Below, piece by piece: positions 20,541-27,769 of a stretch of 32,000 bases of DNA; the first letter of the stretch is position 1; every line of letters starts with the position of its first letter. A program made the position numbers and the translations under genes. Where the stretch lies: positions 120,001 to 152,000 of the forward strand of contig SHMX01000001.1 in NCBI GenBank assembly GCA_008080745.1. Reading direction: 5' to 3'. The DNA is from Candidatus Thorarchaeota archaeon. Its GTDB lineage: Archaea > Asgardarchaeota > Thorarchaeia > Thorarchaeales > Thorarchaeaceae. The notes under the pieces were generated by a model. That model saw only the letters and a list, made by a program, of their open reading frames with translations. It was not told where the DNA came from and made no database searches.

Positions 20541-22151
20541 ATGGAGAAAGTTCCTTTGTCAAAAACGAGAAGACTATTGTTGGAATTTGAAACCGAGGAG
20601 GTTGGAAAACAAGCAAGAAGTAATTCAGAGGTTCGAAAAGAATTGGTTCGTGCTATATCAGACTCATCGGATATCGTAAGACAAAGAGCACTGCTTGCGA
20701 CTATAGATTTAGCAGATCCAACAGTCGTTGATGATGTAACAAAAGCTATGAAAGATGACGAGGAAGAAGTTCGCATTGCTGCCGCTCAATCATTAGCATT
20801 TTATCATCAACCAAAGACTATCCCGATTCTTCTTGAAGGGTTGAAAGATTCTGACCCCTGGGTACGTTCTCACTGCGCAAAGGGACTATCCAAACTTATA
20901 CACGGACCTCTCTGGGCAAGACTACCCGAAGAAGATATTGACAAGATTTTATCTGATTTTCCTGGAATGGTAGAAGAAGATATTCGACAATATCTTACCG
21001 AGCTTAAACTTGAACCTGAAGCTATTGATTCGCTAATGAAGTGGAAACGGAAAGATTACGAGATAGATATTGACCCCTCAAGATTGGAAGAAGAAATGCT
21101 GAGTAAACCCATCATATTTGAATCCGAGAAAATTACAGATAAAACCAGACCGATGACACAAGCAGACGAGATTGCATCCATTCTTTCGGAACTACCCAGA
21201 GATGTTCTATCAACTCTACCACCAGAGGACTTGAAGCGCTTAACTCCAAAAACAGCAAGACAGCTCGTTGACTCCTTAAAAGAATCATTCCCAACTGAAA
21301 CCGAACCAGAAGAGGAAGTAAGAAGGAAAAAGAAAGACACGGGGAAGGTTAGAAAGGTCAGAAAGGTCCAAAGAGTCAAGAAAAAGAGTGCTCGAGAAGA
21401 GATGCTGGCCAAACTACCTGATGAGGTCAAGGAGAGTATGCCCCCAGAAGTGTTAGAGAATATCAGTGTTGAAGAACTTGAAGCATTGTTGAATATGACT
21501 GCCGACTCCGAAGGAGTTGCTGTTGACGTCCCAGAAGAAAAGGTAGAAGAAAAGAAACCGAAAAAGGTAAAGAAAAAAGTAGTCAAGAGAGTAAAGAAAC
21601 GTAAGAAGAAAAAATCACCGCAGCTTGAAGATATAGCTGGGATAGGCCCAGCAACTGTAGAAAGTCTAAAGGCCGCAGGATTCAACTCAGTTCAAATGTT
21701 ATCAGAAGCAAAGCCAGAAGAATTGATCGAAAAGGTGGTAGGTGTAGGATCTGCCAGTGCAGAGAAAATGATAGCAGATGCAAAAATATTAGTTTCTGGT
21801 GAAGAGGAAAAAACGAAACCTGAAAAGAAAGGTAGAAAGGAGAAAATGCTTGCAAAATTGCCTGCTGAAGTTAGAGAATCCATGGGCAAAGAGGCAATTG
21901 ATGCCATGACCGAAGAGGAAGTTGAGATGCTCATTTCTTCACTTGGAACTATTGAAACCGAAGCACCTGTAACACCTGAAAAGTCAGTAGATTCGAAAAT
22001 GGATATTCTTGTTGAGAAATATGGTAGAGAGAAGGCAGAGATACTTGCATTAATTCCGGATGATATGCTTGCAAGTATACCTGAAGATCAAATCAAAGAG
22101 ATGGATATTCCAACCCTCAAATCGCTCTCACAAGCTTTTGAGCACACTTAG
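20541..22151 (+). CDS. HEAT-repeat protein with four ~32-aa helical repeats, Lys-rich linkers and a tandem HhH domain
   Basis: Three HEAT_2/PBS-type repeats (D..DIVRQRA, D.EEEVRIAAA, DSDPWVRSHCA); HhH module LEDIAGIGPATVESLKAAGF...VVGVGSASAEKMI at ~21622-21785. Confidence 0.8.
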   Translation: MEKVPLSKTRRLLLEFETEEVGKQARSNSEVRKELVRAISDSSDIVRQRALLATIDLADPTVVDDVTKAMKDDEEEVRIAAAQSLAFYHQPKTIPILLEGLKDSDPWVRSHCAKGLSKLIHGPLWARLPEEDIDKILSDFPGMVEEDIRQYLTELKLEPEAIDSLMKWKRKDYEIDIDPSRLEEEMLSKPIIFESEKITDKTRPMTQADEIASILSELPRDVLSTLPPEDLKRLTPKTARQLVDSLKESFPTETEPEEEVRRKKKDTGKVRKVRKVQRVKKKSAREEMLAKLPDEVKESMPPEVLENISVEELEALLNMTADSEGVAVDVPEEKVEEKKPKKVKKKVVKRVKKRKKKKSPQLEDIAGIGPATVESLKAAGFNSVQMLSEAKPEELIEKVVGVGSASAEKMIADAKILVSGEEEKTKPEKKGRKEKMLAKLPAEVRESMGKEAIDAMTEEEVEMLISSLGTIETEAPVTPEKSVDSKMDILVEKYGREKAEILALIPDDMLASIPEDQIKEMDIPTLKSLSQAFEHT

Positions 22152-25132: not shown

Positions 25133-27769
25133 ATGATTGTGGTAGAAGATAATGAGGTAGGTGAAATTCAAAGGTTTCTTGTGGCAGATGCTCATATAGA
25201 GATGGGTTCTGTACAGATTGGAAAAGAAAAGCGGGAATTTAACCCGGAGAGAGTATTTTCGTACTTTCGATTGGTGGAAAATCAACTGTTTGATTTTGCA
25301 AACAAATACCCCTCTGCCTTTCGATATATCCCCAGAAAGGCATATGGTTATCTGACTAGACCCCCAATTCTGAGTGAGTTGTACAAAAATGTCTTAGAAT
25401 CAGGAGAACACAATTGGCTAATTGATCTATTCTTTGCCAATCCCCTCCTAAAAATAGTAGATAAACCACTCCCAAAACAACAACAAATCCGAAATACCGA
25501 ATATGTCTATCGTATAGCTATGGAGCCGCCCTACAGCCCTAGATTTTACTATAATCAAGAGATGAGTTTTGGCCTTAGAAATCCCCCAGGCTGGTCCTGT
25601 AGAATTGATGTTGATGAGCTTGAAAAAGTCATTAATGGACCAAATAGATCCTATCTCTTAGATTACATCCGAGGAAACCTACCAATATTTGTTACACTTG
25701 ACAGACCTGAAGAAATGGACAAACTTCTCAAATGGATTATATTCATAAAAGATGCTGGTTTGAAATTTCCAAATCTAATTCTTAGTGTCAAGGATCACAA
25801 ACCATGGGAAGAAGATATTCTTCGGCTTTTTGATATTCCTAACGTAATGATTACAACTTCTGGAGCAACAATTGCTTCTCTTAATTTGATAATAAAACAC
25901 CTTAGAAAGATGAAGGGTGATTGGGCTTCGAAAATTATCTTTGCTAGCTCCTATCCAGAAACAAACACAGGAGATGGAATTGCTGAGATATTGAGCTTCC
26001 TTCTCAGTAAAAATCTCAATGCAAACCCTCAACAAATACAACGCATTCTAGCAGGTAATCTTCTTGCAATGCTTCCTCTCAGACCGCCCTATTTGCAATA
26101 CAAGGAGAGTAAAGCTAGTTTAATTGCCCAATTGAAACTGGGAAGATCAACTGTAGCTGAATTATCTAGGATTTCCCAGGTTTTGGCAGCAAAACAGATA
26201 CAAGGAATTATATCCGTAGATCATACGCTTACCGAGAAGGGTGGAGGTGTGAATCTAGAACAAGTAGTCGTTACTGTTAAAGACCCTGCATCAAAAACAG
26301 CTACAAGCTTCGGCCTAATTCTAAAAAAAGATGGAACCACCATTCTATCTGGATGGGATAAAGAAACCGAACAACAAATGAAGAAGCGGGATGCTGATTC
26401 ATTCTCTGAAATCACTATCAAAAAAGCTGAAAAAAGAGCTATACTACTCAAGACACCCGCTCAATTGAGTAAACTAAATCTTATTCTATTGGATATTCTT
26501 GGAATTAAAAATTCTCATGAGGTCATATCTGCACTACAGTATAGCGTAGAAAGAACTCACCAACAACCGGGCTCGATTTTCATGTGTGAGAAGGATATGA
26601 AAAAACTGGAACTAGAAGAGAACGATTGGGTGCTGGCCCTTGAAACCAAGACGGGTCAATGGTGGCCAAGTAAAGTGGGAATCCGGAGAGATTGTCCAAG
26701 CAGAAAAATACTGATATCAAATCAAGATGCAATCCTCATGCGTCTAGGTGAAGAATCAGGAGTAGACTTGGTGAAATACAGTGGCCTGATTTACGATATT
26801 CAGGATGCGGTATTTGCCTTTGATGCACCAGGTAACCTCTCCGAGTCAGAAGTGATATCATATGTTTACCTCCATGAACGCGAAATCAAGGAAGTATTAG
26901 CAAGACATCTACATGGAAGAGGTAACAAATTGTGGTTTGACACTAAAAATATCCCAATTTATTTCACTCTCCAAAAGACAGACCCAACTCTTGAAATGGG
27001 ACAGCTAGGAAAAGTTGAACCCAAGAATATTGAGTTCACACCATTACAATATACTAGCAATCTCAATACGATTGTGTGTATTGTGTTGGATGAAGGGATG
27101 AATATTAGAGATATTCCCCTTAAGACAGTGTATTCTGTCAGAAAAGGATTTTCGAGACTTACAAAGCTCGTACCAGAACTAATGGATTTCTTGAACGGAT
27201 TAGGAGAACAAATTTCACGGGCAGAATTGGCTTGTCTTATCAGCCTACAGATAATTCAATCCCTAATTGATAACCAAAGTGATGGAAAATTTGGACTGTG
27301 TATAGTAACTGATTCAGTCAACAAGTTCTCCATCCAAAGAGGAGAAATAATACAGAACTATGTTTCATTCTCTCATGATATGCAATCAGAAGAGGTTCTG
27401 ACCGCGTTGATTTACACCGTTTTGGATGCCTATAAGGAACCATTGGGAGAAGATAACTTTTCATTGGCATTTCGATCAATTGCAGAAATGATGGAAGATA
27501 TTGGTGATGAACGTCCAACACTAGTTGAAATGATTGGAAATGGCATAGATCTCGGGGATAAAGAGCCCATTCCATACCTTCATGCCATATCAAAAACTCA
27601 AAAATATCACATTGATTATATTGGAATTGGAGAGGATTTCGACCCGAAGAAAATCGAGGACTATCTCAAAAATCTAAGTGCTTCAATAACTCCAATTTCT
27701 CGATTTTCACTCCATACTTTTGCAGGACACCTAGCTTCAACAATATACGACCTAGTTAACCGAAGATAA
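25133..27769 (+). CDS. Fusion: inactive amidohydrolase-like domain + shared CTD + Cdc48-N-like domain + MIDAS-less VWA
   Basis: Collinear homology to both divergent neighbours (see findings): VADAHIEMG, EHNWLID, IIFASSYP, RILAGNL; QPGSIFMCEKDMKKLELEENDWV; TIVCIVLDEGM...ISRAELA, EMIGNG, IDYIGIG. Confidence 0.78.
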   Translation: MIVVEDNEVGEIQRFLVADAHIEMGSVQIGKEKREFNPERVFSYFRLVENQLFDFANKYPSAFRYIPRKAYGYLTRPPILSELYKNVLESGEHNWLIDLFFANPLLKIVDKPLPKQQQIRNTEYVYRIAMEPPYSPRFYYNQEMSFGLRNPPGWSCRIDVDELEKVINGPNRSYLLDYIRGNLPIFVTLDRPEEMDKLLKWIIFIKDAGLKFPNLILSVKDHKPWEEDILRLFDIPNVMITTSGATIASLNLIIKHLRKMKGDWASKIIFASSYPETNTGDGIAEILSFLLSKNLNANPQQIQRILAGNLLAMLPLRPPYLQYKESKASLIAQLKLGRSTVAELSRISQVLAAKQIQGIISVDHTLTEKGGGVNLEQVVVTVKDPASKTATSFGLILKKDGTTILSGWDKETEQQMKKRDADSFSEITIKKAEKRAILLKTPAQLSKLNLILLDILGIKNSHEVISALQYSVERTHQQPGSIFMCEKDMKKLELEENDWVLALETKTGQWWPSKVGIRRDCPSRKILISNQDAILMRLGEESGVDLVKYSGLIYDIQDAVFAFDAPGNLSESEVISYVYLHEREIKEVLARHLHGRGNKLWFDTKNIPIYFTLQKTDPTLEMGQLGKVEPKNIEFTPLQYTSNLNTIVCIVLDEGMNIRDIPLKTVYSVRKGFSRLTKLVPELMDFLNGLGEQISRAELACLISLQIIQSLIDNQSDGKFGLCIVTDSVNKFSIQRGEIIQNYVSFSHDMQSEEVLTALIYTVLDAYKEPLGEDNFSLAFRSIAEMMEDIGDERPTLVEMIGNGIDLGDKEPIPYLHAISKTQKYHIDYIGIGEDFDPKKIEDYLKNLSASITPISRFSLHTFAGHLASTIYDLVNRR

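Follow-up and report, generated by a model that had tools for sequence, protein, structure and literature searches.

Why should an archaeal genome carry, back to back with the genes of an apparently active amidohydrolase and of a VWA-domain protein, a third gene that resembles both of them joined end to end? The question is raised by a locus of Candidatus Thorarchaeota archaeon (assembly GCA_008080745.1, contig SHMX01000001.1, positions 120,001–152,000; this whole stretch of 32,000 nt is called the window, and all coordinates refer to it). The gene in question (25133..27769, + strand) encodes a protein of 878 amino acids (aa), hereafter the fusion. Across a divergent intergenic spacer of 138 nt (24995..25132) it faces the gene of an active-looking amidohydrolase of 496 aa (AH; 23504..24994, − strand), which is followed by the gene of a 426-aa protein (22148..23428, − strand) with a Cdc48/p97 N-like domain and a VWA domain that has an intact metal ion-dependent adhesion site (MIDAS), hereafter Cdc48N-VWA. 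An earlier note on this DNA had placed the three open reading frames (ORFs) and the spacer at these positions, which was confirmed, and had interpreted the fusion as the dead product of a local inverted duplication that probably works with its active neighbours as a hetero-oligomer. We favour, with a probability of roughly 60%, a reading that departs from it in part: The 878-aa gene would encode a conserved, non-catalytic, single-chain paralogue of the two-subunit unit formed by AH and Cdc48N-VWA.

Homology and domain structure of the fusion

By BLASTP, residues 257–362 of the fusion matched AH residues 290–387 (E = 1e-5) and residues 629–835 matched Cdc48N-VWA residues 167–377 (E = 6e-10). 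Profile-profile comparison with hhalign, based on family alignments built from 20 related loci, aligned the fusion with both neighbours over their full length and in the same domain order: fusion residues 1–406 with AH 1–446 (probability 99.8, E = 5.4e-30) and residues 475–835 with Cdc48N-VWA 8–378 (probability 99.9, E = 5.6e-31). The short motif pairs from which the earlier note had deduced this correspondence all fall inside the two alignments. Both halves of the fusion are thus homologous to two separate, neighbouring proteins, as would be expected of a Rosetta-stone fusion.

The N-terminal part of the protein (residues 1–316; 25133..26080, + strand) corresponds to an amidohydrolase-type TIM barrel without metal ligands and is followed by an alpha/beta extension of unassigned fold (approximately residues 317–468; 26081..26536, + strand) that is common with AH approximately 350–446, the hhalign match reaching fusion residue 406 and AH residue 446. 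Residues 469–637 (26537..27043, + strand) represent a Cdc48/p97 N-like domain, aligned by hhalign with residues 8–170 of the neighbour and by Foldseek, over residues 468–637, with CDC48 N-domain models; residues 638–878 (27044..27766, + strand) comprise a VWA fold that has lost its MIDAS. The AlphaFold2 model of the fusion was confident (predicted local distance difference test, pLDDT, of 89), the N-half having the (beta/alpha)8 barrel fold of amidohydrolases and the C-terminus the alpha/beta fold of VWA domains; in Foldseek, residues 1–457 were aligned with the model of a 510-aa Asgard amidohydrolase (template modelling (TM) score by hit 0.65). Homologues of the fusion are 847–958 aa long and 19–72% identical. 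No Pfam family matched the 878-aa protein at E = 1 or better except for a chance-level viral match, and PF04909 was not reached; NCBIfam and PADLOC were uninformative on all three genes and gave no hint of any known defence system. By the alignments and the residue comparison given below, AH and Cdc48N-VWA have in the 878-aa protein a paralogue that is fused and inactivated in both halves.

Loss of both metal sites

AH is recognised by the Pfam family Amidohydro_2 (PF04909; 43 bits, cut-off 26.4), and its putative metal ligands are conserved: Among 136 AH homologues, D27, H29, H31, K180, H182, H248 and D306 are invariant and H275 is present in 135. In the 48 sequences of the fusion family, D19 (equivalent to AH D27) is the sole ligand equivalent kept, the other positions being varied and differing between genera (H29 is represented by H, S, N and others, H31 by E, Q and others, K180 by R, I, V and others, H182 by D, R and others, H248 by V, A and others, H275 by T or S, and D306 by S, A or G). 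The VWA half has changed likewise. The 426-aa protein matches Pfam VWA_2, with a weak CDC48_N match besides, and has the VWA fold with an intact MIDAS, the residues D189, S191, S193, T315 and D345 being invariant in 101 Cdc48N-VWA proteins; this set is lost in the fused family, the corresponding positions of the 878-aa protein being V651/D653/G655, D774 and N803, in columns that vary across the family. Distant fused forms from the families f2 and f7 are inactivated to the same extent. The loss of the metal ligands and of the whole MIDAS, claimed in the earlier note for the single protein, therefore holds family-wide.

Selection and distribution

Between the window genome and its genus-mate, the nonsynonymous divergence (dN) amounts to 0.185 for the fusion, 0.216 for AH and 0.034 for Cdc48N-VWA, with saturated synonymous divergence (dS). 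Since dS is saturated in the only same-genus pair, the dN/dS ratio of the fusion lies well below 1 and takes no exact value; neutral evolution of the gene, raised in the earlier note as a possible objection, is contradicted by these figures. In the four Asgard families that carry it, the fusion gene has remained subject to purifying selection. The 878-aa protein may be classed as a pseudo-enzyme, as far as sequences can tell: It is a homologue of an active enzyme, has lost the catalytic residues and is held by purifying selection.

Of the 301 genomes of the phylum that were sampled, 82 gave a match to a family profile of the fusion (69 of 76 in family f1, 1 of 1 in f2, 5 of 5 in f7 and 6 of 6 in f19), and the fusion was not found in the other 26 families sampled. 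Most of the 82 matches are intact ORFs of approximately 880 aa and some are fragments at contig ends. Broken copies were also seen, one in a Thor genome with four in-frame stops (G158:C3:785286–787923) and others with a single TAA in the f19 genomes G083, G068, G088 and G103; decay, a split gene or an assembly error could each account for these stops. The Cdc48N-VWA family is wider (174 of 301 genomes), its named members coming from metagenome-assembled genomes labelled Thor-, Odin-, Hel-, Loki/Prometh-, Heimdall- and "Asgardarchaeia". Identity of the protein amounts to 80–86% between genera of its family and to 97% inside the genus (80–97% across the family as a whole), compared with 30–70% for neighbouring genes; such values point to unusually strong constraint.

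Predicted physical pairing of AH and Cdc48N-VWA

Genes for AH and Cdc48N-VWA are adjacent in the families f1, f2, f6, f7 (two pairs), f19 (two pairs) and f22. The AH tree and the VWA tree agree on how duplicated pairs cluster (L031 with L037, L042 with L035), which indicates that the pairs were duplicated as units. A model of the AH/Cdc48N-VWA complex, for which each protein was supplied as an alignment, gave an interaction prediction score from aligned errors (ipSAE) of 0.66 (0.65, 0.66 and 0.76 in the individual runs), the best of three controls reaching 0.00; at least 67% of the contacts were common to the runs, and the pLDDT of the partner was at least 76. The mark applied to such models is reached by 58 of 80 solved complexes and by 2 of 110 mismatched pairs, rates that are rough here because own alignments were used. 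As we know of no solved complex of this kind, recall of a known structure by the model is unlikely.

According to the model, AH would contribute residues 33–58, 90–94, 113–137, 184–189, 216–220, 251–254, 273–281 and 309–315 to the interface, i.e. the loops after the ligand-bearing strands that make up the catalytic face. The predicted partner surface comprises residues 7–9, 37–42, 63–75 and 97–104 of the N-domain and residues 177–180, 205–217, 252–257 and 287–294 of the VWA domain. The MIDAS residues are absent from the confident contacts listed for the model, so the MIDAS of the 426-aa protein may stay free for a third partner. Taken together, the gene adjacency, the matching trees and the predicted complex support physical pairing of AH with Cdc48N-VWA. 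The proposal of the earlier note that both work as one complex is thereby supported by the adjacency in six families, the matching trees and the ipSAE of 0.66; its extension to an obligate hetero-oligomer of active and dead halves fared less well (see below).

Age and order of events

In the tree of the Cdc48N-VWA module, the C-halves of the fusions from f1, f2 and f7 form one group (Shimodaira-Hasegawa-like approximate likelihood ratio test, SH-aLRT, support 87), and a separate group (support 97) holds every MIDAS-bearing protein, from eight families; AH and the fusion N-halves are split with a support of 99. These trees are unrooted and stem from "quick" searches, and the fusion branches are long. 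As the fusion C-halves lie outside the group of all MIDAS-bearing proteins, the duplication appears to be old and not local. In f7 and f19, moreover, fusion and pair share one strand and are 11–12 kb apart. The local inverted duplication postulated in the earlier note was thus not supported. Split pairs are spread over more families than the fusion is, so the split state is probably ancestral and the fusion derived.

Proposed role of the fusion

The comparisons above show that the fusion goes back to a duplicated AH gene and a duplicated Cdc48N-VWA gene that became one chain, and that both metal sites (the His/Lys/Asp set of the barrel and the MIDAS of the VWA domain) are lost in every fused form examined. 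On this basis the following is proposed. The active neighbours would form a heterodimer in which the 426-aa protein sits on the catalytic face of the barrel with its Cdc48N-like domain and one side of its VWA domain, and the pair would belong to a ligase-hydrolase-VWA module that occurs across Asgard archaea (see below). Within this pathway, the most likely role of the dead fusion is that of a scaffold, decoy or regulator without catalysis, which would bind a partner or substrate but not turn it over.

Several points weigh against this proposal. The AH/Cdc48N-VWA complex is a model and not a measurement. The positions of the fusion equivalent to the modelled interface are not more conserved than the others (0.60 versus 0.63 and 0.46 versus 0.53), so the same packing within one fusion chain could not be shown. 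The single origin of the fusion and the order of events are reconstructions that long-branch attraction between fast-evolving copies may have influenced. In the window, 6.4 kb and six genes that look unrelated separate the ligase gene from the pair. Finally, the fusion family has invariant residues of its own (D19, G25, D98, W264, P275, N309 and P618), which could mark a new binding or catalytic site.

The alternative derived from the earlier note, that the fusion is the obligate partner of the active pair in a hetero-oligomer of catalytic and pseudo-catalytic halves, accords with the tight divergent linkage conserved in most Thor genomes and in f2, with a distance of at most approximately 12 kb between fusion and pair in f7 and f19, and with the occurrence of active pairs in all fusion-bearing families. 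It is nevertheless unlikely, because three near-complete genomes (G005, 97% complete; G011, 98%; G016, 95%) keep an intact fusion without the pair: Family profiles did not find AH or Cdc48N-VWA orthologues in them, all matches being the fusion itself or unrelated hydrolases of approximately 300 aa. At two loci of these genomes, L025 and L027, the HEAT gene described below is directly followed by the fusion, the active pair missing between them as if the two-gene unit had been deleted; conversely, f6 and f22 have pairs without a fusion. Probably, then, the fusion does not strictly need the active pair.

That the fusion has instead acquired a new function, with a different active or ligand site made from its own (nearly) invariant residues, is a reading to which we give little credence. 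These residues, among them D19 just before the lost HxH motif, and a dN as low as that of the active AH would fit it; the canonical ligands, however, are replaced by chemically varied residues between genera (e.g. S, H, N, F or L at the first histidine), and no Pfam or NCBIfam enzyme model matches the fusion. A decaying relic, i.e. a pseudogene that is open by chance, is scarcely credible: The fusion does evolve 5–10 times faster than Cdc48N-VWA (branch lengths) and isolated copies are broken (four stops in G158, a single TAA in four f19 genomes), but open frames of conserved length (approximately 880 aa) and 19–72% identity persist in four families, the fold is confidently predicted, and dN is far below the saturated dS.

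Gene neighbourhood and the wider module

The non-catalytic paralogue proposed here lies in a gene cluster whose layout is conserved in the Thor family: the HEAT gene in forward orientation, Cdc48N-VWA and AH in reverse, the fusion in forward, and the genes of the 411-aa, 389-aa and 419-aa proteins in reverse. Across the Thor loci, identity to the window proteins amounts to 80–97% for Cdc48N-VWA, 60–87% for the 419-aa protein, 45–70% for AH and 31–72% for the fusion (outside the genus, approximately 50% for AH and 31–42% for the fusion). The first gene of this series (20541..22151, + strand) encodes a protein with HEAT and helix-hairpin-helix domains (Pfam), is a conserved neighbour in the families f1 and f2, and is adjacent in the Thor loci and in L029. 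Downstream of the fusion gene, a 411-aa protein without assigned family (28039..29274, − strand) is a conserved cluster member according to Pfam scan and locus comparison; its C-terminus gave a weak Atg1-like MIT match. The end of its gene is overlapped by an ORF for an 88-aa coiled-coil protein (27776–28042) with weak Sec3_CC/FliJ-like matches. Next to the 411-aa gene lies that of a third Cdc48N-VWA paralogue of 389 aa (29267..30436, − strand), which hhalign relates to the 426-aa protein at E = 4e-25 and whose MIDAS is degenerate, its columns reading D/E, G/S, A/S, S and S; then comes the gene of a VWA_4-type protein of 419 aa (30440..31699, − strand) with the motif DxTxS, assigned by Pfam and conserved in the cluster. 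The 411-aa and 419-aa proteins had also been considered as further copies of AH or Cdc48N; hhalign found no such relation for either, nor one between the 411-aa protein and the fusion.

A protein of the 50%-identity library of metagenome sequences (P0305, 693 aa) joins Cdc48N-VWA to a VWA domain of the 419-aa type (E = 4e-44), which links the gene at 30440–31699 to the module. Another member of this library (P0279, 570 aa) carries a ubiquitin-family domain C-terminal to Cdc48N-VWA (25.8 bits, cut-off 25.4), and in Cdc48N-VWA proteins of Loki/Hel type (670–830 aa) an N-terminal extension takes the place of a separate AH. Proteins of 721–764 aa from L034 (6680–8845, f9) and L039 (5837–8131, f24) have an N-terminal extension of approximately 310–345 aa before Cdc48N-VWA, and the 721-aa Loki-type protein showed a weak second CDC48_N match in this extension; no AH gene is adjacent in L034, whereas L039 has part of an AH-like ORF at its edge.

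The ligase of the module is represented in the window by a GCS2-type homologue of 1153 aa (12250..15711, + strand), identified by BLASTP matches (E = 1e-66 to 1e-118) to the ligases that flank AH/Cdc48N-VWA pairs in other Asgard families (L031, L035, L037, L038, L040 and L042). The homologue in L040 matches PF04107 (GCS2, carboxylate-amine ligase family) at 1.5e-8. At six loci from four families (f6, f7, f19 and f22), a GCS2-type ligase gene is convergent with or adjacent to the pair; in Thor genomes it lies several kb away. The interval between the ligase and HEAT genes (15942–20324) encodes a DUF92 membrane protein, a 265-aa protein without assignment, an SPFH/Band7 protein, NfeD and an Rce1-like CAAX protease, in the same order in most Thor loci. 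Just beyond the window (G000:C1, 152.1–160 kb), a 195-aa protein (L041, 61–648) matches the Pfam E2F_TDP winged-helix family (E = 5e-9), and a 204-aa protein (L041, 7327–7941; G000:C1, approximately 159.3 kb) gave only weak winged-helix matches in Pfam.

Within the active pair, the AH and Cdc48N-VWA genes of the window share one reading frame, with one TAG and 25 sense codons in between (23429–23506); the translation of this spacer is conserved in the genus-mate. Ahead of the first canonical start codon of the Cdc48N-VWA gene, several genera have in common a peptide-like motif (E-A-x-x-I-T-K, just before L-E-I), and some of them lack ATG, GTG and TTG upstream; the true start of the protein is uncertain on this account. 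An active fused form produced by programmed stop-codon readthrough was considered and rejected, since the frame is common to 5 of 14 Thor loci, which equals the chance rate; apparent "open frames" of approximately 950 aa contain a stop. A scan of the 138-nt spacer for bacterial-type promoters, a model unsuited to archaea, scored no better than shuffled sequences.

No description of such a module turned up in the literature searched, in agreement with the earlier note, which knew of none. The fusion provides sequence-based evidence that two proteins, a hydrolase hitherto uncharacterised and a Cdc48N-VWA protein of exceptional conservation, function as a single physical unit. Together with the GCS2-type amide ligase, this unit would constitute a gene module spread over many Asgard lineages, possibly a system that makes and breaks amide bonds and has its own non-catalytic paralogues, and as such an expressible target for biochemistry.

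Comparison with known systems

Compared with the PF04909 amidohydrolases of known structure (3cjp, 4dlf, 3irs and 4inf), the Asgard AH is remote and has a C-terminal extension of approximately 150 aa; its family profile found no match among PDB sequences at E = 0.01 or better. The N-half of the fusion differs further from these enzymes in having neither the metal ligands nor a Pfam match.

The N domain of p97/Cdc48/NSF (double-psi barrel plus beta-clam) superposes on residues 1–175 (approximately) of the 426-aa protein, isolated p97 N domains (5x4l_B, 5epp_A and 4kdl_A) giving TM-scores by target of 0.72–0.75 and root-mean-square deviations (rmsd) of 3.3–3.5. In Pfam, this domain reached 14.8 bits for CDC48_N, below the cut-off of 35.1, and CDC48_2 was weak too. 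In p97/Cdc48/NSF the N domain is followed by an AAA+ ATPase, whereas in the Asgard protein a VWA domain takes this position.

The closest known two-domain layout is the NTD-SABA front end of DEPDC5/Iml1 (Sea1; subunit of GATOR1/SEACIT), in which a Cdc48/NSF-N-like domain precedes a VWA/Sec23-trunk-like domain in the same order; the NTD of DEPDC5 has been described as NSF-like and SABA as Sec23-like, in a domain composition regarded as unique (PMC8534245). DEPDC5/Iml1 provided the top two-domain Foldseek matches in PDB, AlphaFold database clusters and Swiss-Prot models (E = 2e-13 to 2e-11), with E values in PDB of 2.2e-13 (426-aa protein) and 1.2e-10 (fusion) and with residues 1–377 of the 426-aa protein aligned to DEPDC5 5–371 in the Swiss-Prot models (E = 1.8e-12); the N-D1 part of p97/Cdc48 came next at about 1e-10 to 3e-11, i.e. 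with E values 10–100 times weaker. The rmsd is approximately 13 Å, however, and the VWA domain finds much closer matches in ordinary VWA domains, which fill the top 50 VIA matches to the exclusion of DEPDC5. With E values up to 10 admitted, Pfam IML1 (PF12257) matched nothing anywhere in the genome, and DEPDC5/Sea1 was not among the PDB sequences matched by the Cdc48N-VWA family profile at the same threshold. Moreover, DEPDC5, a partner of the longin proteins NPRL2/NPRL3, continues with SHEN, DEP and C-terminal domains, whereas the 426-aa protein ends after the VWA domain; the longer members of its family have ubiquitin, a second VWA domain or extensions of no assigned family, a DEP domain being seen in none of them. 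Asgard surveys list NPRL2-like longin proteins (in Thor genomes in the former) and no DEPDC5 counterpart (bioRxiv 10.1101/2020.10.19.343400; PMC12290439).

On these structural comparisons, the likeness is architectural only, and the view that the Asgard-wide Cdc48N-VWA family, together with the C-half of the fusion, is an archaeal relative of the NTD-SABA part of DEPDC5/Iml1 can be put forward only tentatively, as an improbable kinship. If it held, a scaffold subunit of GATOR1/SEACIT would have arisen from the MIDAS-bearing adaptor of an archaeal ligase-hydrolase module; the likeness of this adaptor to the front end of DEPDC5/Iml1 raises a testable question on the origin of the GATOR1 subunit.

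With Rosetta-stone fusions and pseudo-enzymes in general, the 878-aa protein has in common that its halves are homologous to two neighbours and that catalytic residues were lost under continued selection. It differs from them in that both halves are dead and in that the fusion is a paralogue coexisting with the split pair. It is a clear example from nature of a fused pseudo-enzyme, inactivated in both halves, that has survived the loss of its active relatives in some genomes.

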